The notes: a model not told the origin generated them from the sequence alone. A DNA stretch of 64,000 bases from Butyricicoccaceae bacterium (GCA_052289195.1 DAWAJD010000005.1:12537-76536), one strand, 5' to 3'. Shown: positions 6,822 through 23,167, numbered from the stretch's first letter. Translations and numbers: made by a program.

Positions 6822-6897
6822 GCTGGAATAGCTCAGTCGGTAGAGCAGCTGATTCGTAATCAGCAGGTCGCGTGTTCAAGTCACGTTTCCAGCTCCA
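6822..6897 (+). tRNA. tRNA-Thr (anticodon CGT), CCA encoded
   Basis: The cloverleaf was read by hand. The acceptor is GCTGGAA/TTCCAGC. The D arm is GCTC-AGTCGGTA-GAGC. The anticodon stem GCTGA/TCAGC carries loop TTCGTAA. The T arm is GCGTG-TTCAAGT-CACGT. The discriminator is T, followed by CCA. Confidence 0.93.
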
Positions 6898-6994
6898 GAA
6901 GCACCGAAAGCCATTCGGAGTGTGTCGATAAAGAAGTCCCTTAAAAGCATTGAGAATACTAACTTTATTGACAGACGCCAAAAGTGACAGGTCG

Positions 6995-7032
6995 AAAAAG
7001 GACACTATCTGAAAAAGATGGTGTCCTTTTTT
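6995..7032 (+). terminator. Rho-independent terminator-like hairpin
   Basis: AAAAAGGACACTATC, loop TGAAAAA, then GATGGTGTCCTTTTTT (one G-U pair). Confidence 0.5.
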
Positions 7033-7064
7033 CATGCTCTTTTCTGGCTGTAAGGAGGAAAAAC

Positions 7065-7826
7065 ATGGCGGAGAACATGATATATGACTATTACTATGGA
7101 GACGAGAGCAGCCAATTTTCTTTTTATCGCATCCCCCGCCAGCTTATCACGGGGCAGCATTTCAAAAAAGTATCCACTGATGCAAAGCTGCTATACGGCC
7201 TCCTGCTTGACCGAATGGGCTTATCTGCCCGGAATGGCTGGTATGATGACGCTGGCCGGGTCTATATTTTTTACACGCTGGATGAGATTCAGGAGGACTT
7301 GAGCTGCGGCCACGAAAAAGCTGTCAAGCTGCTGTCCGAACTGGACGCAGACAAAGGCTGTGGGCTGATCGAGCGCGTGAAACAAGGGCAAGGAAGGCCG
7401 GCAAAAATCTATGTCAAGCGCTTCACCACACGCCAGATAACCGCTGAATCCCTTGCGCCGCAGGAGCTTCCCAGACTTCCGAAAATCGGAAGTCAAGAAG
7501 TCGGAAAATCAGAAGTCAAGGCTTCCGAAAAACAGAAGTCAAGACTTCCGGTTTTCAGAAGTGCAGACTTTGGAAAATCGGACGGTAATTATATTGAATC
7601 TAATCAAACTGATTTCAGCTATAAAAATCAATCTATCCATCCATCCATCACCTTCCGCTTCCTTCATCGCTACCCGGACAATTTCCATGCAGGCATCGTC
7701 TGCGGCAGAGCCGAGGACGGCAGCCTGCTGGTGATCCACTGCGCCAGCGGATACAACAATGTGGTCATCACGGGAACGGACGGCTTTGCAGTTGCTGCAA
7801 GGCCGGGCTGCTTTTCGGGTCATTGA
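7065..7826 (+). pseudogene. Chimeric ORF: RepA_N-type replication initiator N-terminus joined in frame to the C-terminal tail of an NlpC/P60 (C40) peptidase
   Basis: The ATG at 7065 is preceded by AAGGAGG. The N-terminal part (YDYYYGDESSQFSFYRIPRQLI...STDAKLLYGLLLDRMGLS...YIFYTLDEIQEDL...RPAKIYVKRF) is a typical RepA_N of clostridial ICEs. After ...SDGNYIESNQTDFSY the sequence switches to HAGIVCGRAEDGSLLVIHCASGYNNVVITG, a typical C40 peptidase C-terminus. Confidence 0.6.
7474..7588. repeat. Five tandem imperfect 23-bp repeats (iteron-like) inside the RepA_N ORF
   Basis: The units start at 7474, 7497, 7520, 7543 and 7566. They read GACTTCCGAAAATCGGAAGTCAA, GAAGTCGGAAAATCAGAAGTCAA, GGCTTCCGAAAAACAGAAGTCAA, GACTTCCGGTTTTCAGAAGTGCA and GACTTTGGAAAATCGGACGGTAA. 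Unit 1 is internally palindromic (ACTTCCGA-AAA-TCGGAAGT). The 23-bp period is not a multiple of 3. Confidence 0.85.
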
Positions 7827-7848
7827 CTTTTTTCGACGGAGAAATATA

Positions 7849-7877
7849 TTGCAAATCAAAGAGCCATCCTATATACT
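7849..7877 (+). promoter_or_regulatory. Sigma-A promoter of the two-gene VapD-like module
   Basis: TTGCAA (7849-7854), a 17-nt spacer, then TATACT (7872-7877). The predicted transcription start lies downstream of the ATG at 7878, which supports the start at 7923. Confidence 0.5.
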
Positions 7878-7922
7878 ATGGGTGTAGAAGATGGTATTTT
7901 TCAGGCGACAGGAGGCGATACC

Positions 7923-8258
7923 ATGCTGAAGCTGGAAATCAAATTCAATGATGCACAGATGCAAGCGGATCATAAGTATGCCCCGGAGTCCATTTATGCC
8001 GCACTGGATAAATCCTTTGCCAAGTATCATTTCCGCAGAGAGACACTTTCTGACGGGACGATCTGCTACTATGGAAACGGGATGGCGCGTGATTATGGCA
8101 CCTTTGGCCGACTTATCACCACCTTGAAGGACAAGGAGTGGTTTATGGCCTATCTCATCAAGTGGCTTTGGTACAACAGTGATGACGGAGAAAACGAAGC
8201 AGACTTCACCGTGGAGGATGTTCTCTATCATTATGCCCACCGCGAGAGTGCTGCGTAA
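7923..8258 (+). CDS. Hypothetical 111-aa protein, putative partner of the VapD-like protein
   Basis: The ATG at 7923 lies 7 nt after AGGAGG (7910-7915). The protein is MLKLEIKFNDAQMQADHKYAPESIYAALDKSF... Its stop overlaps the next start (TAATG at 8256-8260). I recognise no family. Confidence 0.7.
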   Translation: MLKLEIKFNDAQMQADHKYAPESIYAALDKSFAKYHFRRETLSDGTICYYGNGMARDYGTFGRLITTLKDKEWFMAYLIKWLWYNSDDGENEADFTVEDVLYHYAHRESAA

Positions 8259-8593
8259 TGGCGAGAAAAGAGGCCAAGCGCTTTAAGGCTCTTTATTTTG
8301 ATTTACGGATCAAGGATTTGGAAGAACACTATTCCAAATCCCGCCCCAAAGGCGCTTATGAGAAGATACAGAAATTCTTGATCAGGCGCAGCTTCTCACA
8401 TGAGCAGTATTCCGGCTATCATTCTCTATATAAAACCACAGACTTGGAGATTTTCGATCTGATCCGGGATATGAGCGATACCTTCCCGTGGCTTCAGCAC
8501 TGCGTCAACCATTTTGAAGTAACCAATGTTGGAGCCAACCATGACCTGATGGATCTGTTCATGGAGGATGTGGAAGATCCCATCGCTCTGTAA
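8258..8593 (+). CDS. VapD-like (Cas2-fold endoribonuclease family) protein
   Basis: 111 aa. ALYFDLRIKDLEEHYSKSRPKGAYEKIQKFLIRRSFSHEQYSGY...WLQHCVNHFEVTNVGANHDLMDLF aligns by eye to the VapD pattern A-x-FDL-x2-KD ... AY-x2-I-x3-L-x3-F-x3-QxS-Y ... W-x5-V ... D. Confidence 0.65.
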   Translation: MARKEAKRFKALYFDLRIKDLEEHYSKSRPKGAYEKIQKFLIRRSFSHEQYSGYHSLYKTTDLEIFDLIRDMSDTFPWLQHCVNHFEVTNVGANHDLMDLFMEDVEDPIAL

Positions 8594-8633
8594 GCGCTGT
8601 CGAAATTCGTCTCAAATCGAGACACATTGTTTC

Positions 8634-8680
8634 AGGCCCACACTGCCGTATCGGTAGTGTGGGCCTGCTTTTTCTTTTCC
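8634..8680 (+). terminator. Rho-independent terminator after the VapD-like gene
   Basis: AGGCCCACACT (8634-8644) pairs with AGTGTGGGCCT (8656-8666) and is followed by GCTTTTTCTTTT. Confidence 0.7.
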
Positions 8681-8765
8681 TAAAGTGACAGCGACCGCCG
8701 GTGCAGATGCCAACAACTGATGCGATATGTAAAGCAGATACAGCTGTTGGCGCGTAAAGCGTCGA

Positions 8766-8794
8766 AAAATGCGTCTCATTTTGAGACGCATTTT
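8766..8794. terminator. Bidirectional terminator hairpin at the 3' end of the XRE gene
   Basis: Perfect 12-bp stem AAAATGCGTCTC-ATTTT-GAGACGCATTTT. A/T runs on both sides allow it to work on either strand. Confidence 0.6.
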
Positions 8795-8797
8795 GGC

Positions 8798-9070
8798 TCA
8801 TTTCGATTTCAATATCCTGTCGGGGAATACAGATGCGTTGATAAGATCGGCAGGATCGACCTCCAGGGCATCGGCAATATCATAGAACACATCCAGTGAA
8901 AAGCTGTGCGCCAGATTAGGCGCTTCAATCGTGCTGATGAGAGAACGGCTGACACCGGCCTTTTCCGCCAGCTTCTCCTGTGACAGGCCGCGCATTTTGC
9001 GAAGCGCGGCAATAGCGATCCCAAGCTGTATGAATCGGTCACGATTCTTGAAGGATACTTCTTTGCTCAT
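8798..9070 (-). CDS. XRE-family helix-turn-helix transcriptional regulator
   Basis: 90 aa. The HTH core is LRKMRGLSQEKLAEKAGVSRSLISTIE. It is transcribed divergently from the SLOG gene. Confidence 0.85.
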   Translation of the reverse strand: MSKEVSFKNRDRFIQLGIAIAALRKMRGLSQEKLAEKAGVSRSLISTIEAPNLAHSFSLDVFYDIADALEVDPADLINASVFPDRILKSK

Positions 9071-9145
9071 ACAGTGTCCTGCCTTTCTGATGATAAGAAA
9101 ATTATACGGGTTCCCGCTGTTCTTTTCTGTATATATCAGAAAGCT

Positions 9146-9175
9146 ATTGCTTTAATTAGTAAGCAATAGTATAGT
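9146..9175 (+). promoter_or_regulatory. Promoter of the SLOG gene overlapped by a palindromic operator candidate
   Basis: TTGCTT (9147-9152), a 17-nt spacer, then TATAGT (9170-9175). The palindrome ATTGCTT-N8-AAGCAAT (9146-9167) covers the -35 element and spacer. A second inverted repeat, CTTTCTGAT (9083-9091) / ATCAGAAAG (9135-9143), flanks the XRE-proximal side. Confidence 0.45.
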
Positions 9176-9222
9176 ATAAGAGAGCAGATGACGGAAACCG
9201 AGAGAGAAAGCAGGTGGGCGTG

Positions 9223-9777
9223 ATGATTCATCGCTGTGCAGTCATTGGCCAGCATCCTCTGCGCTTTCCGTGGGGCTTTGACGAGGAGGACACTCAATGC
9301 CGCCGCATGAAGCTGGAGCTGGCACAGCGCATCATGGAGCTGCACCAATGCGGGATAACAGAGTTTCAGGTGGCTTGCGATCATGGTGTGGGGCTGTACG
9401 CCGCAGAGATCGTCAACACGCTGCGGGAGAATGACCAGGCCCTTCGTTTGATCTGTGTCCTGCCCCACGAAGGGCAGGCGACCAAATGGACGCCGCAGCT
9501 CCGTGACCGCTATTTTGCGATGCTGGCAAGCTGCACGGATATAGACTGTATCTCACCCTATGAGCAGCCGGATGCTCAGTTTTCAGCTTATCAGCGGATC
9601 ATCGAGCGGTCGGATATGGTGCTGGCAGTTCACGATCTGAGCGCAAATGCTGACCGGGCGGAGGATCGCGCGCTGCGCTATGCGCTGGAAGAGTTGAAAA
9701 AACCTGTTCTTGTTCTGCATCCCCAAAAGCTGACCGTGCAGGTCTTTCCGCAAGGCTCTGAAAAAACAAACGGATAA
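9223..9777 (+). CDS. SLOG-superfamily protein, DUF1273 / YpsA-like
   Basis: The ATG at 9223 follows AGGTGG. The segments FQVACDHGVGLYAAEIV, LICVLPHEGQATKWTPQLRDRYFAMLA and IIERSDMVLAVHD match, in the same order, B. subtilis YpsA ISGQLGVELWAAEAA, VITPFYEQEKNWKEPNKEQYEAVLA and FIDKSDGLLLLYD. Confidence 0.7.
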   Translation: MIHRCAVIGQHPLRFPWGFDEEDTQCRRMKLELAQRIMELHQCGITEFQVACDHGVGLYAAEIVNTLRENDQALRLICVLPHEGQATKWTPQLRDRYFAMLASCTDIDCISPYEQPDAQFSAYQRIIERSDMVLAVHDLSANADRAEDRALRYALEELKKPVLVLHPQKLTVQVFPQGSEKTNG

Positions 9778-9787
9778 ACCAATGTTG

Positions 9788-9817
9788 AAATGCGTCCCGC
9801 CGTGGGGCGCATTTTTT
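9788..9817 (+). terminator. Rho-independent terminator after the SLOG gene
   Basis: AAATGCGTCCC-GCCGT-GGGGCGCATTT (one G-U pair) followed by TTTT. Confidence 0.6.
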
Positions 9818-9895
9818 ATCGCGCGGGCGTTTCTGCCCCGTATCGTACAATACCTCTGTGAGCAAGCTAAGAAAAACGATACGGAGGACGACACC

Positions 9896-10606
9896 ATGAA
9901 CGAGCTGCAAGCCTTTGAAAAGCACCTGCGCGAAAACGAGAAAAGCCCCGCCACGATAGAAAAATACCTGCGCGACGCCCGCGCCTTTCTGTGCTGGCTG
10001 GACGGGCGCAAGCCCACCAAGGAGCTGACTGTCTGCTACAAGGAAGGACTGACAGAGCGATACGAGGCCGCCAGCGTCAACTCCATGCTGGCGGGGATCA
10101 ACAGCTACCTGTCCTTTTCCGGCCGCGCAGACTGCCGCGTGAAGCCCCTGCGCGTCCAGCGGACGCTGTTCGGGAGCGAGGAACGGGAGCTCTCCCGCGA
10201 GGAATACGCCCGCCTTGTCCGCGCCGCCGTCCGCAACAAGGGGAAAACCCGCGTGATCCTCATTCCCGCCGCGCTGCGAAGGCTCCTGCTGGGCTATATG
10301 AAAAAGGCCAGCGTCACCACCGGCAGCGTGTTCCTCTCGAAAAACAAAACGCCGCTGGACCGCAGCACGGTCTGGCGGCGCATGAAAGCCCTGTGTGAGC
10401 GGGCGGGGGTGGACCCACGCAAGGTCTTTCCCCATTCTCTGCGGCATCTGTTCGCCCGCGTTTTTTACAGCGTGGAAAAGGACCTTCTGCGGCTTGCGGA
10501 CATCCTCGGCCACGCCAGCGTGAACACCACGCGCATCTACACGATGGAAACCGGACGGCAGCACATGAAGCTGCTGGAGCGCGTCAGCCGCGTGCTGCTG
10601 ACATAA
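9896..10606 (+). CDS. Tyrosine recombinase/integrase, unusually short (236 aa), apparently lacking the box I Arg segment
   Basis: The ATG at 9896 follows ACGGAGGA. It has an N-terminal SAM-like domain (SPATIEKYLRDARAFLCWL). The C-terminal catalytic motifs HSLRHLFA (HxxR) and LGHASVNTTRIY (His/Tyr) are present. No TGxRxSE-type box I lies between ...ARLVRAAVRN and KGKTRVILIPAAL. Confidence 0.75.
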   Translation: MNELQAFEKHLRENEKSPATIEKYLRDARAFLCWLDGRKPTKELTVCYKEGLTERYEAASVNSMLAGINSYLSFSGRADCRVKPLRVQRTLFGSEERELSREEYARLVRAAVRNKGKTRVILIPAALRRLLLGYMKKASVTTGSVFLSKNKTPLDRSTVWRRMKALCERAGVDPRKVFPHSLRHLFARVFYSVEKDLLRLADILGHASVNTTRIYTMETGRQHMKLLERVSRVLLT

Positions 10607-10653
10607 TGACAATTCTGTTGCGGCACGGGCGCACATAATGACAATTCTGTTGC
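10601..10653 (+). repeat. Two perfect 21-bp direct repeats, 32 bp apart start to start
   Basis: ACATAATGACAATTCTGTTGC occurs at 10601-10621 (containing the recombinase stop codon) and again at 10633-10653. Confidence 0.9.
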
Positions 10654-10687
10654 AAAGGGTACAGTAACCCTACGATACGCCGCCATC

Positions 10688-11308
10688 TTGCAGGTGCTGA
10701 CCGATGCAGGCGTTGACTGGGCGGATGTGCGCTCTGCACTTGCGGCGCATAGCAGCGAGGGCATCTATTACCGTACTGACCATCATTGGACGAGCCTTGG
10801 GGCCTACTATGCCTATTGTGCGTGGCGCGGTATTGAGCCTACGGCGGGCGAATGGACGCAGGAAGTACTCTGCGATGATTTCTACGGTACAACTTGGAAT
10901 AAAGTCCCGCTGCCCTCTGTCCCCGCCGAGGAGATCACCGCATGGTATAAGCACATAAATAGAAGTGTGTCCTACAACAACGGTCAGTATGAGACGGACA
11001 GCATCTACGAGCGGAAATACCTGTCCGGCAGCGACCAATACGCCGTATTTCTCAACTCCAATCAGGCGCAGACTGTCATTGAGGGCAGCAGCAAGAGCGG
11101 CAAGCTACTGCTCATTAAAGATTCCTACGGCAACACCTTTTCCCAATTCCCCGTGGAGGACTATGCGGAAGTCCATGTGATCGACCTCCGCTTTTTCAAG
11201 GGTGATGTGGTGGAATACGCCAAGGAAAACAGCATTACCGATACGCTGGTGCTGTATGGTGCGCAGGGGTTTGCGGGAGATAAGAACCTGCAGGCTGCTA
11301 AAGGCTAA
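10688..11308 (+). pseudogene. 5'-truncated DHHW-family (AlgJ/AlgX-like SGNH acyl-esterase) gene
   Basis: The 206-aa frame carries the family motif IYYRTDHHWTSLGAYYAY near its start. It lacks the N-terminal membrane anchor and roughly 150 aa expected from my recollection of the family. It has no RBS. The frame is open back to 10610, across the second 21-bp repeat. Confidence 0.65.
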
Positions 11309-11471
11309 TTTGTTTGGCCCGTTTCAGGCCGTGTACCGATAGCCACAAGACCGCTTACATTTCTTTGTCATCGCATTGTCGGCTCCGAGGGCATCTGCGA
11401 TCTTCGTTGTGCTTCCGCCTTTTTAAAGCGTATAGCAACGCAGGCAAAGCAAAAGATTTTTTATAAACTAT

Positions 11472-11528
11472 AGCGGCGCAGAATATGACTGGACAGTAAA
11501 TGAATTTCCAGTTATACTCTGCGCCGCT
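11472..11528. other. Long near-perfect hairpin (22-bp stem, 13-nt loop) in an AT-rich 360-bp spacer
   Basis: AGCGGCGCAGAATATGACTGGA (11472-11493), loop CAGTAAATGAATT, then TCCAGTTATACTCTGCGCCGCT (11507-11528). 20 of 22 positions pair. No adjacent U-tract on either strand. Confidence 0.8.
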
Positions 11529-11668
11529 GAATACGATCGTTAAAAATAGCCGTGTATGGGAAGGGCTTGAACCGCGGTACTGGCCCATATAGGGAAGCAA
11601 GCACACGGAAAGAATGGAATAGGTAGAGCGAAATATACGCAATATGCCGGGTGAAAAGAATCTAATTG

Positions 11669-13723
11669 CTATTTGAACTCGAAAATTATTGGATCATCCA
11701 GAGGAATCCATTCTGTTGTCAGATAGAGCAGCTTCAGTTTTACGGCACCAAGGCAGCACTTGACAAAGGTGTTGATTTGGTTTGGAGACTGGGAACTGAT
11801 ATCCTGCAAAGCCAGCATTTTTCCGGCGCTGCCATAGACGGCCAACAACATTTTCCCTTCGCAGATATCGTCATCCGAAACTGAGCCAAAAAAGTGCAGC
11901 GTTCCGTCCGTGGAAATCGTCGCAGAAACCATGGGTCCGGTGGCAGGGATTACCGCCTGCGCGACCAGGATCTTCCGGCAAACTGCACAGTGCTTTCCTT
12001 CTGTTAGTCCGGTTTTGGTGCAGGTAGGTGCGACGGCCTCATCTATGACCTCTTGATGCCCTGCCGCCGGAACGGCGACCTGTTTGACCAGCACGGTCCC
12101 GCACTCGGCACAGTGCTGGCCGCGGGTCAAGCCCGGAACCGTGCAGGAAGGCGCGACGGCGTCATCATCGACCGCCCGATGTCCCACCGCTGGAATTTCC
12201 ACATAAGTGGAATAGCTGCAGCGAGTGCAGGCGTCGTATTCGTTCCACCCGATCTGGGTGCAGGCGGCGGGCTGGGCCGCGTGAGAAACGAGGTCATGCC
12301 CAAGCGCGCCCCGCTCGGCTTGCGGCTTGAGGATCAGTCCGCAGGAGCATTGCAACCCTTCGGTCAACCCGTGCTCCACGCAAGTGGGTTCTACGGCGGG
12401 AAGGACCGTGGCTATATGCACGGAGATCGTTTTTGGAACGGCTTCTACTGTTAGCGGGGTTTCCTGAGCGGAAATGGCACTGTCCATGATCGGCGTAACG
12501 ACGGTTTCCGCGGGGCAATCGCCTTTGGCCTTGAAACGCAGTGCCAGCGTGGTGAACGCTTCTGTTAGCGCACTTCCTGCATAAGCTAAGCGTACCGTCC
12601 CCGGCGTTTCACTATTGATCAAAAAGACCCCATTGCCGACGGTTGGCGCGGTACCGCTAAGATATTCCAACACATCTGTGTCATAGAACACATCCAACAC
12701 CATCGCTGCGATACCACTGTTTTCAGATAGGACAGCTGCGAGATCAAATGCATCGCCGGCGCGGATATGCGTCGCGGAAAGTTGGAGCTCAAGGGAATGC
12801 TGTTCCTTGGGCTCGGCAGGACGGAGGATATGTATCTGTGCAAAACCGCCGCTGCTTACCAGCGAATTCCTGCGGGTGTCGATCAATTCTTGTACAGAGA
12901 AATTGATTTGTGCCGTACCCGATTCTTTTGCGGCAAAGGTCAGCGTCATCAGTGTTCCGCAGGAGAGCGCATCTGTTGTAAGATAAGTCACAGAGACATA
13001 CCCTTCCGTTTCTCGGTTGACTTGAAAAAGCGCGTTCAGCTCCTTCAAGGCTCCGGCGGGCTGAATGTCCTGCAAAGACAGCAGGCATTCATCATACTGG
13101 AAACGGATAGTCCCACCCGCCATGTCTTTGGAATCTGTGGTGCTGAGCGACAATGTTATTGTAGCACCCACATCAATCATCGTTTCGGACAAGCGGGGGG
13201 TTAGCCGCACGACCGGGGCTTGTGGTTTTTGGATCGAGATACTGCCGGAGCGGGCGTTGATTTCCAGAGGATATCTGCTTTTGTCCAGGGCATCACCCAC
13301 CAGAAGCTCCAGCGGATAGGTTTTGCATTCAGCTGTTCCAGCCGCCTCAAAGGTCAGCCGAAGCAGCACGCCGGAACTGGAAATCCCGCTGCTGCAGATT
13401 AGCGACAGATGAAGCAAGCCGGGAGCTTCTTCGCTGCAAAGCAGCAATGTGCCCTCTCCAGAGACTAAGGACGCCTTAGAACTGCTTAAAAAGGTTAAAT
13501 TTTCACTGTCATAGCGAATATAAGCTTCCAGCGCCGCCAGGTTGGATGCATTGTCTACGCGAAGGGCCACATTGATGCTGCTGCCTTGAAATACCGTTCC
13601 GCCGGAAAGCGACAAGACTACATCGGCGGCCGCCGCAGCCCTGGGCGCTGCACAAAGCAGCGCCCCAAGGCAGAGCAGTAGAGAAAAAATCCGCCGAAAA
13701 TGCAGGTGAATCATCTGTTTCAT
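11669..13723 (-). CDS. Secreted scaffoldin-like protein: three cohesin-like modules, four Cys-rich repeats and an unknown C-terminal domain
   Basis: 684 aa with a signal peptide (LLCLGALLCAAPRAAAA). Three modules of about 130 aa (aa 34-166, 171-300, 309-436) show the cohesin-type pattern, for example NLAALEAYIRYDSENLTFLS, MAGGTIRFQYDECLLSLQ and IAAMVLDVFYDTDVLEYL. It starts 3 nt after the stop of the dockerin-bearing protease gene. Confidence 0.7.
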   Translation of the reverse strand: MKQMIHLHFRRIFSLLLCLGALLCAAPRAAAAADVVLSLSGGTVFQGSSINVALRVDNASNLAALEAYIRYDSENLTFLSSSKASLVSGEGTLLLCSEEAPGLLHLSLICSSGISSSGVLLRLTFEAAGTAECKTYPLELLVGDALDKSRYPLEINARSGSISIQKPQAPVVRLTPRLSETMIDVGATITLSLSTTDSKDMAGGTIRFQYDECLLSLQDIQPAGALKELNALFQVNRETEGYVSVTYLTTDALSCGTLMTLTFAAKESGTAQINFSVQELIDTRRNSLVSSGGFAQIHILRPAEPKEQHSLELQLSATHIRAGDAFDLAAVLSENSGIAAMVLDVFYDTDVLEYLSGTAPTVGNGVFLINSETPGTVRLAYAGSALTEAFTTLALRFKAKGDCPAETVVTPIMDSAISAQETPLTVEAVPKTISVHIATVLPAVEPTCVEHGLTEGLQCSCGLILKPQAERGALGHDLVSHAAQPAACTQIGWNEYDACTRCSYSTYVEIPAVGHRAVDDDAVAPSCTVPGLTRGQHCAECGTVLVKQVAVPAAGHQEVIDEAVAPTCTKTGLTEGKHCAVCRKILVAQAVIPATGPMVSATISTDGTLHFFGSVSDDDICEGKMLLAVYGSAGKMLALQDISSQSPNQINTFVKCCLGAVKLKLLYLTTEWIPLDDPIIFEFK

Positions 13724-13726
13724 AGA

Positions 13727-16700
13727 TCACGCTTTCGGGGCAGTGCGAACGCTGGAGATCTCTCCGTTGACATACTGCATGACCCGCAGCACATCCGCAA
13801 TATCAATCATGCCATTTCCATTGATATCCCCCCGCGCAGTCTGTTCTGCTGTGGGCGTATCCAGACTCACGGCGATCCGCAGCATCTGCAGCGCATCCTT
13901 GAGGGTGATCAGTCCGTCGCCGTCCAGATCGCCCAGAGAATCCACATCCGCGCCCTGCTGCACGGTGATGACATAGGGCCGGGTCTCATCCCGCCCGCCG
14001 GCATAGGTCGTGCTGACGCCGTCGGTCGCCGCGATATAATATTCCAGCCCCGCCAGAGTGACGGCATCTGCCGGGAGATAGGCAAAATACTTGTCGTTGC
14101 TGGAGGCCATCTCTAGCGTGTTCCAGCTCGCTGCCCCAACGGTGCGGTAATGCAGCGTCACGCCGGTGACGGCCACATTGTCGGTGACCAGGGCGCTGAT
14201 CTCCAGCTTTTTGCCGGTGACGGCAGAGAAGACCGGCGTATGCACCACCTGGGGCGCTTCCACATCCTTCGCCACTACGCTCACCCGGCCGGAGGGCTGA
14301 GACTCCGCCGCGCCCACATCGGTGGGGACCACGGTGAAGCTGTAGTAATACCGTTTCCCGCCTTCCACATCCGAATCGACGAAGGCGCCCAGGGTGCGGC
14401 CCTCGGCCGTGGGATCCTCCTCCGGAAGGATGACGGAGCTGTTCAGTTTGCGGGTCTCGCCGTTTTCGCTGTCGGCCCGATAAACATTGTAGCCGGCCAG
14501 CGTGCCGTAATCGTCCTGGGTCCAGGTCAGATGGACGCCGTCGGCCTCCGCAGCACCCTGCATGATCATCGCTTGGGCGGAACTGGTGTCGATCCGGAAG
14601 GAGAAGCGGCCCCAATCCTGATAGAGCTTGAGGTGGCTGCCGTCCTCCGCCGCGGCCGAGCGGCCGTTTCCGATGGACCAGAACTGATAGCCGTTTTCGA
14701 TGATGGTGCGCAGAGTGGTGGTCCCCTGCCAGGTGCGGGCATCGGTGTAGGCTCCCGGGACCTCATAGTCGGCATAGGGATAGGCGCTGCCGAAGCGCAC
14801 CTCCAGCGGGATGTCCGTGTCCATATCCCGGTTGAAGCGGACGGTGAAAGTCACCTCCTCGTTGGCGACCACTGAGACAGGTTTGCCGCTTTTGTCCGTC
14901 AGACTGACGCCGGCCACGCAGGGCCAGACATCCTCGGGAATGGTCTCCAAAATCGTCCCCTCGTTGATGCGCGCCAGCGTTTTGAAATCGCGGTTGTCGA
15001 TGATCTGCTTGTCGATCGCCGCTTTTTTGGCGCTTTCGCTCATGCCGTCTGTGCCCCAATAGTTGCCGCCGAGGCCGATGACGGTATCGGAGTTCCCGTC
15101 CGGAGCCTGGATGCGCAGCCATTTTTCCACATCGGTCTCGGTAAAGCGGTTGAGGATGGCATTGTGCCAGAAGGTGGTGTTATAGCCCTGGGCGCAGAAA
15201 TCATCCCAGCGGGCCAGGATCTTTTCCGCGGTCCAGGTGCGCGCGGCCACGGCATCGTCATCGGTGACAGCGCCGGAGGGCAGCGTGCTCTGGGTCTGCA
15301 GCAGCAGGGACTGCGCCGTATAGGTCAGCGGCAGCTCCTCCTGCGCCGAGAAGGTGAAGGTGACGGTGATCGCGCCGTTTCCGTCGCCAAACTTGGTCAC
15401 CAGGGCGTTTTGGGGGATCGTCAGGGTATATTCCACCCCTTCTTCAAAGCCCAGGGCGGCGGTGACGGTCAGCTTGTCCAGCCGGAGCTCCGCCTTCCCC
15501 AGGGAAACGCTGTTCCCGTCCCCATCCCGGAGAGTGATGGACCGGAAATTGCTCCCCCGGATCAGATATTCGTTGAAATCCAGCACCAGCTCCTGTTCAG
15601 TCAGCACATCGCCTGCGCCCGTGTTGGTGCCCGTCAGGGCAAAGGGCTCTTCGTTGGGCTGCAGACCCAGCAGCACCCGCACGGGGGTGTAGCGGTCCTC
15701 GGTGGAGAGGTCGGCCAGCTGGCGCTGATTATTCCGACCCATGCCGTAGAGTTTCCCGTCCGCGGTCTGGATAAAGGTGTTGTCATCAAACATGAAGATG
15801 GATTCCGCATTTTCGATGCCCGGGAGGGCGGTGTATTCCGAAACGGAATCGACATCAGCTCCCAGACCCAAGGCACCATAGTTGTTTCTGCCCTTGCCGT
15901 AGACGATGCCATCTTCCAAGTAGAAGCTCCGGTAATCGTTCACCAACTCATGCTCCGCTGTCTTTGCCACAGTTTTCCGACAACTGGTCCTGTTGTAAAC
16001 TGCATAAGAATCCTCGAATTCGACGGTATAATTGCTGGAATCATGATTTTTTTCAAGTCCCACTGCGTCGCTGCAGACCAGCATTGGGTCGGTATCATAG
16101 TCGGCATAATAGACCTCGCCCGACTGGGTGAGCATGGCCACACCCTCATAGCTGGAAACAATCTTCGTCACTTGGGAAACACCGAGAATTTGTCGAGGCG
16201 CGTTCATGTATCTCCATGTCCAAACGCTCCCATCGGCCTTTAGTGCACAATTGTAATCATTATAGTACCCAACAACTTCCGCGACATCCGTCAAAAAAGC
16301 TGTTTGCTTAACTGCGCCCTGACTAGAATAACAATCCAACGCCCCGTCCGAGTGGAGGACAAAAAGATCATTCCACACTGCCACACCCCTCGCATCTTCA
16401 ACGGGCAGCTGCTCCGGAACGATCAATTTGTCACCCCAGCGCCACAGACTCCCGTCATCTAAAATGCAATAATAATTAGAATGGTTTTTGAATATATCCA
16501 CCACCCGAGACCTGGATTCCCCTTCCGTGACGCAGACGGTGATTTCCGCATATAGATCCGTCCCGTGGGCCGTGGCGCGGAGGGTGGCGCTGCCGGTTTT
16601 TTCCTTGATCAGTGTGCCGGTCTCATCCACATAGCAGATCTCCGGGTTGGAGGATTCCCAGATCACCGTCTGGTCGGTGGCGTTGGCCGGTTCAATGACC

Positions 16701-19700
16701 AGGCCCAGGTCATCCTCTTCCGCGCCCAGGGCCGTAAAATAGATGTTTTCCGCAAAGCGGATATCCGTGACCGGGCACACGACCTCCACCTCCACCTGGG
16801 CGAAGACCTCCGGCGCCGTTTCCGATGCCACTGTCACGGTGGCGGCACCGGGGGCCACGGCGGTGAGCATCCCGCGGGAGTCCACGGTCACCACATCCTC
16901 GTCATCGGAAGAGAAGGAGATGCCGGTCCGGGTGGTGTTTGCCGGCTCCAGCCGGCAGGTCAGTTTCTGCCGGGTCCCAACATTCATCCGGAGCGCGGTT
17001 TGGGTCGGGACGATGGCCGTGATGTCCACCAGGTCCACCACATGGACGGTGACGTCCCGCCAAACCGACCCGTCGGGAGAGGAGATGCGGATAACAGCGT
17101 CTCCCTGGGCCAGAGGCTGAATCCGCCCCTCGGCGCTGACCTGGGCGATCTCCGGGTTGAGGGATTCATAGCACAGCTGCAGCGCGTTGGCCGTCTCGCT
17201 GGGCTGGACCGTGGGCTGCAGCCCATAGGTCATCCCGGTGTCCAGGGTCAGCTCGTCCTGCTCCACCAAAATATCTGTGATCTCGGCGCAGGGAAGAATA
17301 ATATCATAATAAAAATTATCAATCAGCGCAAGCGCACCGCCCAACGATTCGGCGAATCGGCGCAGAACAGGTTCGGACACCCCATAAACACGAACCCTGG
17401 TGGTCCCGGTGTCCGGGTCATAGCGGACCTGCTGCACTGAAAGATAGGAGTTTCCGCTGCTTGCCTTGTAGCTGCTAGTGACGGTATCTCCACTCTTGTC
17501 CCGGTTGTTGTTGCCGTAGAAAACGCAGTCTTCATAGCGGCCCGCAAATTGGATTCCACAATCTACGAAGATACAGCTTTCGTAGTTGCCGTAGCTGCGG
17601 TCGGAAAAATAAGTGTCCCCTAACTTATAGAATGCGCAGCATTCTGCCGTTGTGATGCGAAAAGTCAGAGAGCCATAACTTGTGCGCACCGTTCCGCCGT
17701 CCAGATAGCGATAATAGACTTGCCGATCATTATAATTCCTGCGAAATTCGCATCCGTAAGCCGCGGAGATGCTGCGATAAGTACTATACGGATTGTCGTT
17801 GCTGGAAAAATACCCGTTCACCACATCCGTATAGCGCAGGCTGACATAGCCTTTACCGGATTCATAGATCTCTACGCGGTAGTTGCTCATGAGTTCGCTG
17901 GGGAAGAGACGCACATGGTCCTCCTCCGTGCCCTCACACAGGAGCGTGCCGCGGACATTGAGGTAGGTGATGGCCGTATCGGCATAGGCGTCGTGGGGAT
18001 CGTCGGACCAGAACTGGATCTGGGTCCCGGCCTCCACCGTCACGGTGACGCCGGGCTTGATCTCCGTGGCGTTGGGGATGATGTAATAATTTTCCCGGGT
18101 GAGGGTCATGTCGTGGTCGATGACATCCGGCAGGATGACGCCCCGGCGCACATCCAGCGTGATGGCGCTAAAGCTGGTGTAATCGGCGTCGTCCTTTTCA
18201 TTCAGCCCATTTTTCGCCGAGATGCGGACATTGACCTTGAGGATGTAATCATTGGGGCAGTCCTTGGTCACCCGCATCAGGAAGGGGTGCTCCCAATCCA
18301 GAATGAACTCGCCATCCTGGATTTTGCCGCAGTCCTGGGTGGAATAGGTCCCCACGCTGCCATAATTCATGACGGCGCTTTCGCCCCAGGTCTCACCATC
18401 GGCAGAAAACTGCACATAATTGCAGGGGAGACCGGCCTCGCTGTAGGTGTCCACCGTCACCATGGTGTCCCGGCTCATGCCCCAGCGGTTGCGCAGGGTG
18501 AAGCCCAGGGCGACGGTCTCTCCCGCGTCGATAACGCCATCGCCGTTGTTGGCCTCGCTGTATTTGGACAGGTCAAAGACCATGTAGTCCGAAAGACTGA
18601 TCTCCGGCTGGGGGAGCCTGGTGAAGGCCTCGTAGAGATTGACGATGGCCGGGAGGTTGTGCGAGCCGTGTCCGGACGGCGTCGGGTCATAGCACTGAGC
18701 GTGCTTTTCCGAAGTGGCGGCCAGCTGCCCATAGATAAATTTGGTGGGATATTTCCCCGGGTCGCTGTAATACCCTCGCAGCAGCGCCGCCATGCCGGAG
18801 ACCAGAGGCGCGGCCATGGAGGTCCCGCTCCAGGTGGCATAGCGGTCGCCGGGGATGGTGGAAACGATGTTTTCACCGGGGGCATAGAGCTCATATTCCA
18901 CATTGTTGTAGGCGATGCTGTCGTAGTTCGTGAAACTGGACTCCACGCCGCTGCGGTCCACGCTCATGACGCCCAGAACATAGGGCAGCGCGGCGGGATA
19001 ACTGGGTACCGCTCCGTTGGGCAGCCCATCATTCCCCGCGCTGGCCACCAGGACGCAGCGGGTATAGGCCTTTTCCAGCGCGTCCTGCACCGCGATGGAA
19101 CAGGCCGAGCCGCCAAAGGACATGTTGATCACATCCGCGCCATTGTTATAGGCATAGAGGATCGCCTTTGCGATGGCGTCCTGGTGGAAATATCCGCTGG
19201 ACATGCCGGCCTTGACAGACATGATCCTGGTGTTGAAAGCCACGCCGATGATGCCCTTAAAATTGTTGTCCGCGGCGATGACGCCGGCCACATGGGTGCC
19301 GTGACCGTGGTCGTCGCTGCCGCTGCCGCGGCCCGCCACGATGTCCACACCATAGACATCGTCAACATAGCCGTTGCCGTCGTCATCGATGCCGTTCCCG
19401 GGGATCTCCTTTTCATTGACCCACATATTGTCCCGCAGGTCCTCGTGGGTATCATCCACACCGGTGTCGATGACGGCCACCACCACATCGGATTTGCCGC
19501 CGGGGTTTTCTCCGTGAGCCAGCAGCCAGGCCCAAGACTGCTGCACCCCGCAGTTCAGCAGGTTCCATTGGCTTTCGATCCTGGGGTTCTGAAAGAGCTT
19601 GAACTGCTCGTTGACAGCAGAATCCAGTTGGGTCTCTTCATACTGCCCCTCGGTCTGGTAGATGTAATTGTACTCCGCCGTCACCATCTGGTCCAGTTGG

Positions 19701-20050
19701 CGCAGCGCTTCCAGCGCCTGGGGCGGCAGCACGCCGCTTTCCAGGTGCGCGGTGAACCAGCGGCCTTCGTCGGTGTCAAACAGATGCTCCAGCCGAGCCA
19801 CGCCGCACTGGGCCAGCGCGGGCGTGACTGCGTCTCCGCTGTCCGGCGACAGCTTGACCAGAACATTGTCCGACGCATAGGGGAACTCTTCCGGATCAAA
19901 GCTGTCTTCCTGAGCCAGGTCAAATGGCTCAGTCAGAACATTTTTTGCGGTCTGCGCGGGTTCTGCATTTTCGGCGTGACCGGCGAAAATCGGCGTTGCC
20001 AGGGAAAAAAGCAGAGTGACGGTTAAAAGCAAAGAGATTGCTTTTTTCAT
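13727..20050 (-). CDS. Giant secreted S8 (subtilisin-family) serine peptidase with a C-terminal dockerin
   Basis: 2107 aa with a signal peptide and an I9-like propeptide. The catalytic motifs are VVAVIDTGVD (Asp195), HGHGTHVAG (His250), SAGN (Asn340) and GTSMAAPLVSG (Ser411). These are followed by beta-helix-like, three Big_2-like, RCC1-like, SbsA-Ig-like and Fn3-like segments. The C-terminus carries two Ca-binding dockerin repeats, DLDGDGLITLKD and DINGNGMIDIAD (nt about 13745-13930). Confidence 0.9.
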   Translation of the reverse strand: MKKAISLLLTVTLLFSLATPIFAGHAENAEPAQTAKNVLTEPFDLAQEDSFDPEEFPYASDNVLVKLSPDSGDAVTPALAQCGVARLEHLFDTDEGRWFTAHLESGVLPPQALEALRQLDQMVTAEYNYIYQTEGQYEETQLDSAVNEQFKLFQNPRIESQWNLLNCGVQQSWAWLLAHGENPGGKSDVVVAVIDTGVDDTHEDLRDNMWVNEKEIPGNGIDDDGNGYVDDVYGVDIVAGRGSGSDDHGHGTHVAGVIAADNNFKGIIGVAFNTRIMSVKAGMSSGYFHQDAIAKAILYAYNNGADVINMSFGGSACSIAVQDALEKAYTRCVLVASAGNDGLPNGAVPSYPAALPYVLGVMSVDRSGVESSFTNYDSIAYNNVEYELYAPGENIVSTIPGDRYATWSGTSMAAPLVSGMAALLRGYYSDPGKYPTKFIYGQLAATSEKHAQCYDPTPSGHGSHNLPAIVNLYEAFTRLPQPEISLSDYMVFDLSKYSEANNGDGVIDAGETVALGFTLRNRWGMSRDTMVTVDTYSEAGLPCNYVQFSADGETWGESAVMNYGSVGTYSTQDCGKIQDGEFILDWEHPFLMRVTKDCPNDYILKVNVRISAKNGLNEKDDADYTSFSAITLDVRRGVILPDVIDHDMTLTRENYYIIPNATEIKPGVTVTVEAGTQIQFWSDDPHDAYADTAITYLNVRGTLLCEGTEEDHVRLFPSELMSNYRVEIYESGKGYVSLRYTDVVNGYFSSNDNPYSTYRSISAAYGCEFRRNYNDRQVYYRYLDGGTVRTSYGSLTFRITTAECCAFYKLGDTYFSDRSYGNYESCIFVDCGIQFAGRYEDCVFYGNNNRDKSGDTVTSSYKASSGNSYLSVQQVRYDPDTGTTRVRVYGVSEPVLRRFAESLGGALALIDNFYYDIILPCAEITDILVEQDELTLDTGMTYGLQPTVQPSETANALQLCYESLNPEIAQVSAEGRIQPLAQGDAVIRISSPDGSVWRDVTVHVVDLVDITAIVPTQTALRMNVGTRQKLTCRLEPANTTRTGISFSSDDEDVVTVDSRGMLTAVAPGAATVTVASETAPEVFAQVEVEVVCPVTDIRFAENIYFTALGAEEDDLGLVIEPANATDQTVIWESSNPEICYVDETGTLIKEKTGSATLRATAHGTDLYAEITVCVTEGESRSRVVDIFKNHSNYYCILDDGSLWRWGDKLIVPEQLPVEDARGVAVWNDLFVLHSDGALDCYSSQGAVKQTAFLTDVAEVVGYYNDYNCALKADGSVWTWRYMNAPRQILGVSQVTKIVSSYEGVAMLTQSGEVYYADYDTDPMLVCSDAVGLEKNHDSSNYTVEFEDSYAVYNRTSCRKTVAKTAEHELVNDYRSFYLEDGIVYGKGRNNYGALGLGADVDSVSEYTALPGIENAESIFMFDDNTFIQTADGKLYGMGRNNQRQLADLSTEDRYTPVRVLLGLQPNEEPFALTGTNTGAGDVLTEQELVLDFNEYLIRGSNFRSITLRDGDGNSVSLGKAELRLDKLTVTAALGFEEGVEYTLTIPQNALVTKFGDGNGAITVTFTFSAQEELPLTYTAQSLLLQTQSTLPSGAVTDDDAVAARTWTAEKILARWDDFCAQGYNTTFWHNAILNRFTETDVEKWLRIQAPDGNSDTVIGLGGNYWGTDGMSESAKKAAIDKQIIDNRDFKTLARINEGTILETIPEDVWPCVAGVSLTDKSGKPVSVVANEEVTFTVRFNRDMDTDIPLEVRFGSAYPYADYEVPGAYTDARTWQGTTTLRTIIENGYQFWSIGNGRSAAAEDGSHLKLYQDWGRFSFRIDTSSAQAMIMQGAAEADGVHLTWTQDDYGTLAGYNVYRADSENGETRKLNSSVILPEEDPTAEGRTLGAFVDSDVEGGKRYYYSFTVVPTDVGAAESQPSGRVSVVAKDVEAPQVVHTPVFSAVTGKKLEISALVTDNVAVTGVTLHYRTVGAASWNTLEMASSNDKYFAYLPADAVTLAGLEYYIAATDGVSTTYAGGRDETRPYVITVQQGADVDSLGDLDGDGLITLKDALQMLRIAVSLDTPTAEQTARGDINGNGMIDIADVLRVMQYVNGEISSVRTAPKA

Positions 20051-20263
20051 GGTGACCCCTCCTCATCCTTATAAGCTACCTTAAACATACACTTATTTTT
20101 GAAAAAAACAATATGCTGGCTGCATAGTGTTTTGAAAAAGCTGCAGGGCCGCTGTCATAGAAACTTTAGAAATTCTTTTGCTGCAGCACCTTTTCATTCC
20201 CGTTTTGTCCGTGTATAATGGAAATAACTATAAACAGAAAAACTGATACAGGGGGATTGGAAT

Positions 20264-20572
20264 ATGCTGAACCGCGTGATCGTGAACATCGACGATTTTG
20301 ATTATACCGTGGTCTCGGAGGATCCTGAGGAATATATTCGCAAAAATGCCGCACTGGTGGACCAGACCATCCGGGAGATCAAGGCCTCCACGCCTTTCTC
20401 CGCCATGACCTCCGCCGTGCTGGCTGCCATGAACCTTTCGGACAAGTATTACAAGGCCCAGGACTCCGCTGACGGGCTGCGGGTGCAGATCAAGGACTAT
20501 GCGGAGGAATGCGCCCGGCTGCGGGCGGAGGTGGCACGGCTGAACAAAGAGCTCAAGGAAGCCAAGCGCTGA
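20264..20572 (+). CDS. zapA: Cell division protein ZapA
   Basis: 102 aa. The N-terminus VIVNIDDFDYTVVSEDPEEYIRKNAALVDQTIREIK is followed by a coiled-coil tail. It has the typical position upstream of the U32 peptidase gene. Confidence 0.8.
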   Translation: MLNRVIVNIDDFDYTVVSEDPEEYIRKNAALVDQTIREIKASTPFSAMTSAVLAAMNLSDKYYKAQDSADGLRVQIKDYAEECARLRAEVARLNKELKEAKR

Positions 20573-20585
20573 GAGGAGACCGCTC

Positions 20586-22676
20586 ATGCCTATGGAACTG
20601 ATGAGCCCTGCCGGCTCGCTGGAGGGCGTGATCGCCGCCGTCCGCGGAGGAGCAGACGCCGTTTATTTTGGAACAGGCGACTTCAACGCCCGCCGCAACG
20701 CCAAAAATCTGGAGGGCGACGATCTGGCGGAGGCCCTGCGGTATTGCCGCCTGCGGGGCGTGCGAACCTATGTCACCGTCAACACGCTGGTCACGGACCG
20801 GGAGCTTTCCCGGGCAAGGGAGCTGATCCTGCAGCTGAACCGGCTGGGAGCCGATGCTCTGATCGTGCAGGATCTGGGTATGGCCCGGATGATCCGTGCA
20901 TTGGCACCGGACCTGCCCATCCATGCCTCTACCCAGATGACCATCCACAATATCGGCGGCGTTTTGCAGGCACACAGGCTGGGCTTTTCCCGGGTGGTGC
21001 TTTCCCGGGAGCTGCCGCTGGAGGAGATTGCCTTTATTTGTAAAAACAGCCCGGTGGAGATCGAGGTCTTCGTCCATGGGGCGCTTTGTATGTGCTATTC
21101 CGGTCAATGCTATCTTTCCGCAGCTATCGGCGGAAGGTCAGGCAACCGGGGCCTGTGCGCCCAGCCCTGCCGGATGTCCTACAGCCTTCCCGGCGAGGGC
21201 ATGGAGCATCCGCTGAGTCTGAAGGATCTTTCGCTGGCGGAGCATCTTTCCCAGCTGGAGCAGGCCGGCGTCCACACTTTGAAGATCGAGGGCCGCATGA
21301 AGCGGCCGGAATATACCGCGCTGGTCACCAGCATTTATAAAAGGGCACTGACGGAGCGCCGCGCGCCCACGGCGGAGGAGCTTTCCCGGCTGCAGGCGGT
21401 TTTTTCCCGGGAGGGCTTTACGGACGGCTATTTTACCGGGCACAAGGGCCCGGAGATGTTCGGCACCCGGCAAGAGGAAAACGGCCGGGAGACCCGGGAG
21501 CTTTATAAGCAGGCGCAGACCATCTATCAATCCCAGCCGGAGCCGCCCACGGTCCCGGTGGAGCTGCGGTTTTCCGCCCATGCGGAGCAGCCCATGGTTC
21601 TTCTGGCGGAGGATCGGGACGGACACCGGTATGAGACGGTGGGTATTCCTGCGGAGCCTGCCCTGCGGCGGGCCACCACGGAGGAGGAGGTGCGCTCCGC
21701 TCTGAGCAAGACCGGCGGGACTGTTTTTTTCCCCGAAACGGTGGATGTCGACCTGGAGGAGGGCCTGCGGGCCTCTGCCGCCGCCATCAACGCCATGCGC
21801 CGGCAATGTCTGGAGGGCCTTGCCCTGCAGCGGAAAAAGCCGCCCCAGCGCCGGCAGGGTCCGTGGCAGCCCGGCGTCCAGCGGCTGCAGCGGCAGCAGC
21901 CCCCGGGCTATATTTTCTCCTTCCTTTCCGTGGACCAGCTCACCTCCCCCATCCTGCGGGCCGGGGCGGAGATGCTCTGGCTGCCCCTGCGGGAGCTGGC
22001 GGAAAACGCCCAGCTGGTCCGTGCGCTGACGGAGCAGGGCCTGCGCTTTGCCGCCGTGCCGGACCGGATCATTTTTGACGGACAGTGGGCGGAGACGCTG
22101 GCGCAGCTGCGGCAGGTCCGGGCGGCGGGCGTTTCCGATCTGGTGTGCAGCAATCTGGGGCAGATCCCCATCGTGCACCGGCTGAACATGGCGCTGCACG
22201 GGGATTTTGGCCTGAACATCATGAACTCCCAGTCTGTGCGGGAGCTTTCCCGGCTGGGGCTTTCCTCCTGCACGCTTTCCTTTGAAATGAATCTGGCCCA
22301 GATCCGGGATATGAGCCTGGGCATGGACTGCCAGCTGCTGGCCTATGGCCGCCTGCCCCTGATGATCACGGAAAACACCATCCTCCCGCCGGACCGGCAG
22401 GGCAAGCCCGGCAAGGCGGCGCTGATGGACAAGACAGGCCGCGCCTTCCCGATCCTGCCGGAGAGCCACGGACGCGCCACGCTTTACAACGCGGAGACCC
22501 TCTGGCTGGCGGACAAGAAGGAGGAGCTATCCGGGCTGGGCCTGCGGTGGCTGCGGCTGAGCTTCACCACCGAGACGCCCCGGGAGATCGAGGCGGTCAT
22601 CCGGGCGTATCAGACCGGCGACGGGCCCATGCCTGCCCGGGCCACAAGAGGACTTTATTACCGAGGTGTATTATGA
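20586..22676 (+). CDS. U32-family peptidase (long form with C-terminal extension)
   Basis: 696 aa. It begins MELMSPAGS...AVYFG and carries the U32 signature region EIEVFVHGALCMCYSGQCYLS...GRSGNRGLCAQPCR. Confidence 0.9.
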   Translation: MPMELMSPAGSLEGVIAAVRGGADAVYFGTGDFNARRNAKNLEGDDLAEALRYCRLRGVRTYVTVNTLVTDRELSRARELILQLNRLGADALIVQDLGMARMIRALAPDLPIHASTQMTIHNIGGVLQAHRLGFSRVVLSRELPLEEIAFICKNSPVEIEVFVHGALCMCYSGQCYLSAAIGGRSGNRGLCAQPCRMSYSLPGEGMEHPLSLKDLSLAEHLSQLEQAGVHTLKIEGRMKRPEYTALVTSIYKRALTERRAPTAEELSRLQAVFSREGFTDGYFTGHKGPEMFGTRQEENGRETRELYKQAQTIYQSQPEPPTVPVELRFSAHAEQPMVLLAEDRDGHRYETVGIPAEPALRRATTEEEVRSALSKTGGTVFFPETVDVDLEEGLRASAAAINAMRRQCLEGLALQRKKPPQRRQGPWQPGVQRLQRQQPPGYIFSFLSVDQLTSPILRAGAEMLWLPLRELAENAQLVRALTEQGLRFAAVPDRIIFDGQWAETLAQLRQVRAAGVSDLVCSNLGQIPIVHRLNMALHGDFGLNIMNSQSVRELSRLGLSSCTLSFEMNLAQIRDMSLGMDCQLLAYGRLPLMITENTILPPDRQGKPGKAALMDKTGRAFPILPESHGRATLYNAETLWLADKKEELSGLGLRWLRLSFTTETPREIEAVIRAYQTGDGPMPARATRGLYYRGVL

Positions 22677-23146: not shown

Positions 23147-23167
23147 CCGCGGCAGAAAGGGGAGCCT

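Follow-up and report, generated by a model that had tools for sequence, protein, structure and literature searches.

Why would a bacterium encode a very large secreted protease that ends in a dockerin and, directly behind it, a secreted protein with three cohesins? Cohesin-dockerin assembly is understood almost wholly through carbohydrate degradation, that is, through cellulosomes, amylosomes and, recently, mucinolysomes. The question is raised by a two-gene operon at positions 11669-20050 of a 64,000-nucleotide stretch of Butyricicoccaceae bacterium DNA (GCA_052289195.1 DAWAJD010000005.1:12537-76536); we call the whole stretch the window and count positions from its first letter. A first-pass annotation, made from the sequence alone, had described the operon as a self-contained module that multimerises or displays the protease, in up to three copies per scaffold. 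Following up this description, we find it likely that the operon encodes a dedicated pair, in which its own dockerin and cohesin(s) bind each other.

The protease gene (13727..20050) lies on the minus strand, as do all features of the operon given below. Using the list of open reading frames, their translation and the Pfam architecture, we find that it encodes a secreted multidomain protein of 2107 amino acids with a C-terminal dockerin. Its ATG is preceded by a strong Shine-Dalgarno sequence, GAGGAGG. A Sec signal peptide is predicted at the N-terminus (MKKAISLLLTVTLLFSLATPIFA, 19979..20050), with a cleavage site inferred from the sequence in front of GH, and the top Kyte-Doolittle 19-mer of the protein (2.10, residue 5) falls within this signal peptide. 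Residues 187-428 (18767..19492) match the Peptidase_S8 catalytic domain (Pfam 1.9e-50, 172 bits). The Asp/His/Asn/Ser motif set claimed by the first-pass annotation is present in canonical order: VIDTGVD (D195), HGHGTH (H250), SAGNDG (N340) and SGTSMAAP (S411). The closest solved catalytic domain is that of the collagenolytic deseasin MCP-01 (3vv3, 1.1e-45). By its motifs and profile, the protein is an S8 subtilase with predicted activity.

At the other end of the protease, a Dockerin_1 module (residues 2039-2095, 13766..13936) holds the two Ca-binding segments that had been noticed earlier, namely the loops DLDGDGLITLKD (2041-2052) and DINGNGMIDIAD (2075-2086). The Dockerin_1 profile (PF00404, cut-off 22.9 bits) gives 50 bits on the isolated last 77 amino acids and 28.4 bits in the full protein. 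With the profile over its threshold and both loop segments located, the module belongs to the type I dockerins. The protease thus carries a single Dockerin_1 with two loops, no further loop motifs being found in the protein or in the window, and no other dockerin loop pair or cohesin is encoded within the 64 kb.

The gene that follows (11669..13723) encodes a secreted scaffoldin of 684 amino acids, made of a signal peptide and three modules ahead of its tail. Failure of the modules in cohesin searches would have counted against the first description; at the level of sequence profiles, they do not fail. On the whole scaffoldin, Pfam Cohesin (PF00963) reaches 86.7 bits over three stretches, with a cut-off of 24.1; scanned alone, module 1 (residues 33-168, 13220..13627), module 2 (residues 169-302, 12818..13219) and module 3 (residues 303-438, 12410..12817) reach 35.1, 31.1 and 32.9 bits, respectively. 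We also built a profile of each module from its orthologues and searched it against all PDB sequences, where all three profiles retrieved cohesins exclusively. Module 1 is best matched by 5nrk (9e-08), then by 2xdh and 1g1k, its relatives being classical scaffoldin cohesins (5nrk, 1g1k, 2vn5) and an Archaeoglobus cohesin (2xdh). The best match of module 2 is the A. cellulolyticus ScaB adaptor (3l8q, 7e-05), and that of module 3 is the C. perfringens NagJ cohesin (2jh2, 2ozn, 1e-05).

The two genes are joined as closely as had been claimed. They share the same strand and the same frame, and the junction reads GCG TGA TCT ATG, so that a spacer of 3 nt (13724..13726) separates the stop codon of the protease from the start codon of the scaffoldin, with no strong Shine-Dalgarno sequence for the second gene. 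This arrangement suggests that the protease and the scaffoldin are translationally coupled. We assume that both proteins would probably be made in a coupled manner from one transcript, because the gap is only 3 nt and the second gene has no strong ribosome-binding site of its own. Pattern scans for promoters and terminators gave nothing convincing over the shuffled expectation on the terminator side.

The main evidence for the two proteins working together is comparative. Performing the search with the full-length scaffoldin, we obtained only 8 relatives, as the Cys-rich repeats of its tail dominated the word index; a cohesin-only profile, used instead, yielded 371 scaffoldin relatives. For the protease, more than 120 full-length relatives of 2100-2550 amino acids were found at the 90% cluster level, and nearly all of them have Dockerin_1 on record. 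Both sets of relatives come mostly from gut metagenomes. The dockerin sits at the extreme C-terminus, with its loops and helices conserved, across protease clades that are 40-50% identical overall. In every genomic context that we read, the three-cohesin gene comes directly after the dockerin-protease gene, and every scaffoldin examined has exactly three cohesins. Among GTDB species-representative genomes, we found no confirmed scaffoldin relative, and the representative nearest to the window does not have the island.

The pair is kept in at least five divergent clades with differing neighbourhoods, whose scaffoldins are 23-74% identical to that of the window. The window clade comprises L004, L091 and L092, plus L001, whose scaffoldin is 73% identical. 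In a second clade (L002, L003, L085, L086; scaffoldins 42-45% identical), the pair occupies a core-genome site between selenium-carrier and SMC genes. A third, very abundant clade (L087, L088, L093, L094, L095) has scaffoldins of 706 or 788 amino acids with about 25% identity and carries the pair between RNase T and QueH; its contexts include human gut metagenomes, and a single scaffoldin sequence from this clade turns up in 79 blocks of the metagenome collection. The pair is conserved as well in the clade of L089 and L090 and in the low-GC clade represented by L096. The gap between the two genes measures 3 nt in L002, L003, L085 and L086, 12 nt in L087 and 14 nt in L096, and the genes overlap by 4 nt in L089. 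Outside L001, all gaps lie between this overlap and 14 nt; in L001, the gap is 156 nt as called, with a called start that omits the signal peptide. The conserved gene pairing argues for joint action of the dockerin with the cohesins encoded next to it, and it supports the view that the protease and the scaffoldin act as a functional pair.

Does the scaffoldin then hold three copies of the protease? The three cohesins share a pairwise identity of only 24-29%. Comparing the modules between clades, we find that the nearest match of modules 1 and 2 is the module at the same position in every other clade compared. Module 3 finds its same-position counterpart as the best match only in the nearest clade (L085), and in the comparisons with L089 and L087 it is most similar to module 1. 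The triplication is thus probably old, with positions that have since diverged, and the three cohesins are probably ancient paralogues that are not interchangeable. In cellulosome biology, diverged cohesin positions go with different specificities. The low identity, the positional orthology of modules 1 and 2 and the differing nearest solved relatives together make it unlikely that the three cohesins are equivalent, and they probably have different partners or roles. The protease may occupy one to three of the sites, and any that remain may serve partners as yet unknown. The idea of three equivalent protease sites per scaffold, assumed by the first-pass annotation, therefore does not hold as the default, although up to three copies would be possible.

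The same annotation had seen no recognisable anchor in the scaffoldin, and our searches bear this out for both proteins. Scanning Pfam and NCBIfam, we found no SLH, Gram-positive anchor, LysM, CWB or similar domain in either of them. Neither has an LPXTG motif with a hydrophobic tail, a lipobox or a transmembrane helix, and strongly hydrophobic 19-mers occur nowhere but in the N-terminal signal peptide of each protein. What follows the cohesins is a tail of two parts. The first consists of four Cys-rich repeats of about 38-41 amino acids each (residues 439-596, 11936..12409) with the pattern H...C-x10-C-x2-C...PAxGH, which we recognised by regular expression, by self-similarity and by similarity to another protein, P0008. 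No Pfam family exceeds its threshold on these repeats. The last of them is modelled as small beta-hairpins with a predicted local distance difference test (pLDDT) score of 94-97. One His and three Cys per repeat suggest zinc binding, and the repeats probably form a stalk of mini-modules that are held stable by metal or by disulfides. The same repeat is seen in other secreted Clostridia proteins (P0008, P0131-P0137), and the scaffoldin orthologues have 1 to 4 copies of it.

The second part of the tail is a C-terminal domain of about 88 amino acids (11672..11935), which an AlphaFold2 model presents as an Ig-like beta-sandwich and which is a candidate tether or ligand-binding module. Together with the last Cys-rich repeat, it was modelled as all-beta with a pLDDT of 94.6 (13-sequence alignment). 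Foldseek returned no PDB match for the terminal domain at E<=1e-3, the nearest matches being macroglobulin (MG), FnIII and Epf-adhesin sandwiches; judged by this model, the domain is a generic Ig-like sandwich and none of the known wall-binding modules. Relatives are scarce: among 1.84 billion representative proteins, searched exhaustively with HMMER, only 16 came up. In the true relatives examined, all of them secreted proteins, the domain sits C-terminally. Its carriers are another three-cohesin scaffoldin (with two copies), secreted proteins of about 245 amino acids and a BspA-type leucine-rich repeat protein, and the remaining matches are short repeated hits within Calx-beta and other repeat proteins. 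We also considered a hidden cohesin in the N-terminal domain of the ~245-amino-acid proteins and rejected it at a hhalign probability of 0.4-1.5%.

A sortase-like motif, [ILV]PATG, is kept at the junction of the Cys-rich repeats and the Ig-like domain in most family members (LPATGP, IPATGP, VPPTGP). In the window, this motif reads IPATGP (residues 592-597, about 11933-11950). We rejected it as a classical sorting signal because a well-folded domain of 88 amino acids follows and there is no hydrophobic tail. The motif corresponds to the conserved end of the Cys-rich repeat, PAxGH in the internal repeats, and is probably merely that; processing may still occur there.

Sister clades carry a tether at the equivalent places. 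Besides its C-terminal dockerin, the protease P0036 (L089 267-7214) bears two SLH repeats at the N-terminus (64.3 bits). In the clade with 706- and 788-amino-acid scaffoldins, the C-terminus of the scaffoldin is formed by a CarboxypepD_reg-like domain and, behind it, DVNGDG... and DVNEDGQVDILD segments; Dockerin_1 gives 18.3 bits on this tail, which is under the threshold, and the tail is a probable atypical dockerin. With a dockerin in addition to its three cohesins, such a scaffoldin could form polymers or attach to yet another scaffoldin. From these sequences, the family evidently attaches to something further, by an element that is exchanged from one lineage to the next; the position of the sister-clade tether is held by the Ig-like terminal domain in the window clade. 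The first-pass notion of the pair as a module stands as far as a conserved two-gene unit over five clades is concerned, and its self-containment becomes doubtful in view of the sister-clade scaffoldin dockerin and the SLH protease.

Some details of these sister proteins are worth recording. P0036 presents two different attachment devices on one enzyme, and the three-cohesin protein downstream of it has a different, longer Cys-rich tail that is cut by the contig end. The probable dockerin of the abundant scaffoldins has an insert of about 45 amino acids between its two Ca loops. Two of these scaffoldins (L087 17354-19720, and L093 10001-12121, which is P0218 with 706 amino acids) show a Listeria-Bacteroides-repeat-like segment between the cohesins and the Cys-rich repeats.

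We propose that the operon makes a dedicated, non-cellulosomal cohesin-dockerin pair, both members of which would be exported through their Sec signal peptides. Outside the cell, the Ca-binding dockerin of the protease would dock onto at least one of the three scaffoldin cohesins. The scaffoldin would be an adaptor with three different sockets rather than a rack for identical proteases; we prefer the adaptor because the three cohesins are probably not interchangeable. In the window clade, the Cys-rich stalk and the Ig-like sandwich would connect the complex to something else, and the pair would probably serve a gut Oscillospiraceae bacterium in breaking down protein outside the cell. What the sequences show are the domain identities, the lack of known anchors, the conserved pairing of the genes, the divergence of the cohesins and the island context; the binding of dockerin to cohesin, its stoichiometry, the tethering and the substrate are what we infer from these data.

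Several points weigh against this proposal. The nine-stranded flattened beta-sandwich (jelly-roll) fold of cohesins is predicted for the modules from sequence profiles, and a dockerin-cohesin fusion, modelled without an alignment, reached a pLDDT of only 32.6, a value that carries no information. The cohesins are so divergent that one or more of them could bind other partners or nothing. The terminal Ig-like domain, a putative ligand-binding module, resembles no known wall-binding module. Other dockerin proteins or an anchored scaffoldin are possible elsewhere in the genome, and the probable dockerin of the sister-clade scaffoldins implies such partners at least there. Carried to the extreme, doubt about the modules would turn the "cohesins" into structural spacers of Ig-like or jelly-roll type that have lost dockerin binding, their gene being adjacent as that of a chaperone, an inhibitor or a substrate-targeting partner. 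Their modest scores (31-35 bits) would fit such spacers, as would the precomputed Pfam hits on homologues that are sometimes flagged as weak. However, each module lies over the curated threshold, each profile matches only true cohesins, and the partner gene has a well-conserved dockerin at its end in every case, which is hard to explain without a cohesin. We regard spacers as very improbable. Somewhat better placed, but still unlikely in our judgement, is a larger genome-wide network, in which the protease dockerin would sit mainly on an anchored scaffoldin elsewhere and the three-cohesin protein would mainly recruit others. The Limousia mucinolysome offers a precedent, having several scaffoldins, one of them sortase-anchored, and dockerin-bearing peptidase clients (PMC12997984). 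A network would also suit the divergent cohesins with their different nearest solved relatives and the further cohesin partner implied by the probable dockerin of the sister-clade scaffoldin. It would sit less well with a pair that lies on a 13-kb island absent from the closest genome, as the recipient would need a pre-existing network. Strict adjacency with a near-zero spacer, over five clades and different neighbourhoods, fits a mutually specific pair, and the 64 kb hold no other cohesin or dockerin.

A different question is whether the pair, once bound, stays anywhere. The complex might be released as a cell-free multi-protease particle, with the tail as a spacer or stabiliser. Anchor-less scaffoldins are known in cellulosome producers (reviewed in PMC12484212), as are cell-free cellulosomes, neither protein here has an anchor of a known type, and a generic Ig-like sandwich as the terminal domain would be in keeping with release. 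Against it speak the SLH repeats or the probable dockerin at equivalent positions in sister clades, and also the terminal domain itself, which is conserved and recurs C-terminally in unrelated secreted proteins, suggesting a function of its own. Release thus appears doubtful to us. Compared with free release, we consider it somewhat more likely that the complex finds a non-covalent ligand, either at the cell envelope or on a substrate, because the sister clades carry a tether (probable dockerin, SLH) at the equivalent place. Extending the dedicated pair beyond this locus, we put forward only tentatively, and as a little short of an even chance, a widespread, hitherto undescribed minimal "protease-some" class in gut Oscillospirales: one giant subtilase, three ancient, non-equivalent cohesins recruiting unknown partners, a lineage-swapped tether, transport as island cargo in the lineage of the window, and the Ig-like domain with the Cys-rich repeats as a new attachment module.

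How does such a pair compare with known systems? Like the cellulosome of Acetivibrio/Clostridium thermocellum with its CipA, it would combine a secreted enzyme ending in a Ca-binding dockerin with a secreted tandem-cohesin protein. Unlike the cellulosome, neither protein has a carbohydrate-binding module or a carbohydrate-active enzyme (CAZyme) family, the sole linked client being the 2107-amino-acid protease, and neither has an SLH- or sortase-type anchor. Primary scaffoldins usually have near-identical repeats, whereas the cohesins here are mutually divergent. Dockerin-bearing S8 proteases are documented in cellulosome producers, where the double-dockerin Clo1313_0689 binds cell-bound ScaD (PMC12484212); in contrast to that tandem double dockerin, the protease of the window has a single one.

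Cohesin-dockerin systems outside cellulosomes are also described from the gut, namely the Ruminococcus bromii amylosome (PMC4611034) and the Limousia mucinolysome (PMC12997984), and the components of the latter include dockerin-bearing peptidases (PMC12997984). The operon resembles both as a cohesin-dockerin assembly of gut Clostridia repurposed for a non-cellulose substrate, and the mucinolysome cSca2, with three cohesins and a C-terminal dockerin, resembles the 706/788-amino-acid scaffoldin of the sister clade. However, amylosome and mucinolysome are genome-scattered multi-scaffoldin CAZyme networks with a sortase-anchored scaffoldin, and here we see a two-gene unit with the protease as the sole linked client. 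Unlike those of the amylosome and mucinolysome, the scaffoldin of the window clade has neither a dockerin nor an anchor. A further relative is found in the toxin/glycosidase complexes of C. perfringens, where the NagJ cohesin meets the NagH dockerin (2ozn), a pairwise, non-cellulosomal contact that joins large secreted hydrolases, and module 3 is nearest by profile to NagJ. In C. perfringens, each enzyme carries its own single cohesin, whereas the partner here is a separate, non-catalytic protein with three.

A functional analogy is offered by cell-envelope proteinases of Gram-positive bacteria, namely lactocepin PrtP and the streptococcal C5a peptidase. These, too, are secreted multidomain subtilases of very large size, have Ig/Fn-like domains behind the catalytic domain and are displayed to break down protein outside the cell. 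Unlike PrtP/ScpA, the protease of the window has no PA-domain insert and no LPXTG motif, and its attachment would run through the dockerin. NCBIfam matches to cell-envelope proteinases are far under their cut-offs (for example, 23 bits against 1400 for the SGO_0316 family). Between the catalytic domain and the dockerin, we located three Big_2 bacterial Ig-like domains (about residues 925-1165, 16556..17278, approximate boundaries; Pfam Big_2 in three stretches, 4.5e-24). They are followed by an RCC1-like beta-propeller region (residues 1267-1459, 15674..16252), in which WD40_RLD scores 2.6e-13, under its own cut-off, and RCC1 repeats score 5.5e-07, over theirs, and by a borderline Big_5-like Ig domain (residues 1477-1567, 15350..15622; 21.9 bits with a cut-off of 23.6). 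For the regions without a Pfam match (residues 441-1017 and 1461-2035), PDB sequence searches gave nothing significant.

The full-text literature that we searched yielded no account of an operon dedicated to an S8 protease and a three-cohesin protein, which is not proof of absence. As many as 4333 human-gut UHGG genomes encode both cohesin and dockerin, most of them uninterpreted (PMC12997984). If our proposal is true, an operon of a protease and a three-socket adaptor would explain part of these genomes. It would further suggest that gut Clostridia commonly degrade extracellular protein in this way, with a bearing on amino-acid fermentation and possibly on the degradation of host or dietary protein. 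Protein engineering would gain an orthogonal cohesin-dockerin set that is small by nature and whose three cohesins are distinct.

The operon had further been placed in an accessory island, and it does lie in one. In a comparison spanning window 1-32542, the closest genome, DHMK01000014 "Clostridiales bacterium UBA4644", lacks an island of 13.2 kb (6913..20137), made of the operon and mobile-element remnants, and has about 60 bp directly after tRNA-Thr in its place. Window 1-6912 and 20138-32542 are collinear with that genome; both flanks are 91-94% identical in nucleotides, and the neighbouring U32 peptidase is 96% identical as a protein, which places the organism among uncultured Oscillospiraceae near UBA4644. 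Directly left of the island boundary, which we also compared with L005, ARAGORN finds a tRNA-Thr(CGT) (6822..6897, plus strand). Presence or absence between close genomes, adjacency to a tRNA, and a RepA_N gene together with a phage-type integrase mark it as an integrative island. The G+C content is 0.516 in its left part, 0.578 in the operon and 0.61-0.62 in the flanks. The same island is present in other metagenome samples, and the operon of L001 also adjoins an integrase, at a different site. On this comparative evidence, the operon is mobile cargo in the window clade and holds conserved chromosomal positions in other clades.

Apart from the operon, the island encodes RepA_N (6984-7826), an XRE-type helix-turn-helix protein (8798-9070, minus strand), a YpsA-like protein (9214-9777), a short phage-type integrase of 274 amino acids (9782-10606) and the C-terminal half only of a DHHW/AlgX-like protein (10688-11308, profile positions 223-385 of 385). 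Searching a plasmid database with the scaffoldin and with the left part of the island, we obtained only a 121-bp RepA match. The left part (6913-11668) resembles a decayed integrative or plasmid-like element, and the terminator hairpin present behind tRNA-Thr in the related genome has apparently been displaced by the insertion. In the sister clade, one human-gut contig has, 6 kb downstream of the operon, a weak Viral_Rep-like gene and a run of five open reading frames of about 58 amino acids (L093 18357-19382), seemingly unrelated to the operon. To the right of the island in the window (20265-22676), a ZapA-like gene (20265-20572) and the gene of a U32 (collagenase-type) peptidase of 696 amino acids with DUF3656 follow; both are core genes common to related genomes and lie outside the island.

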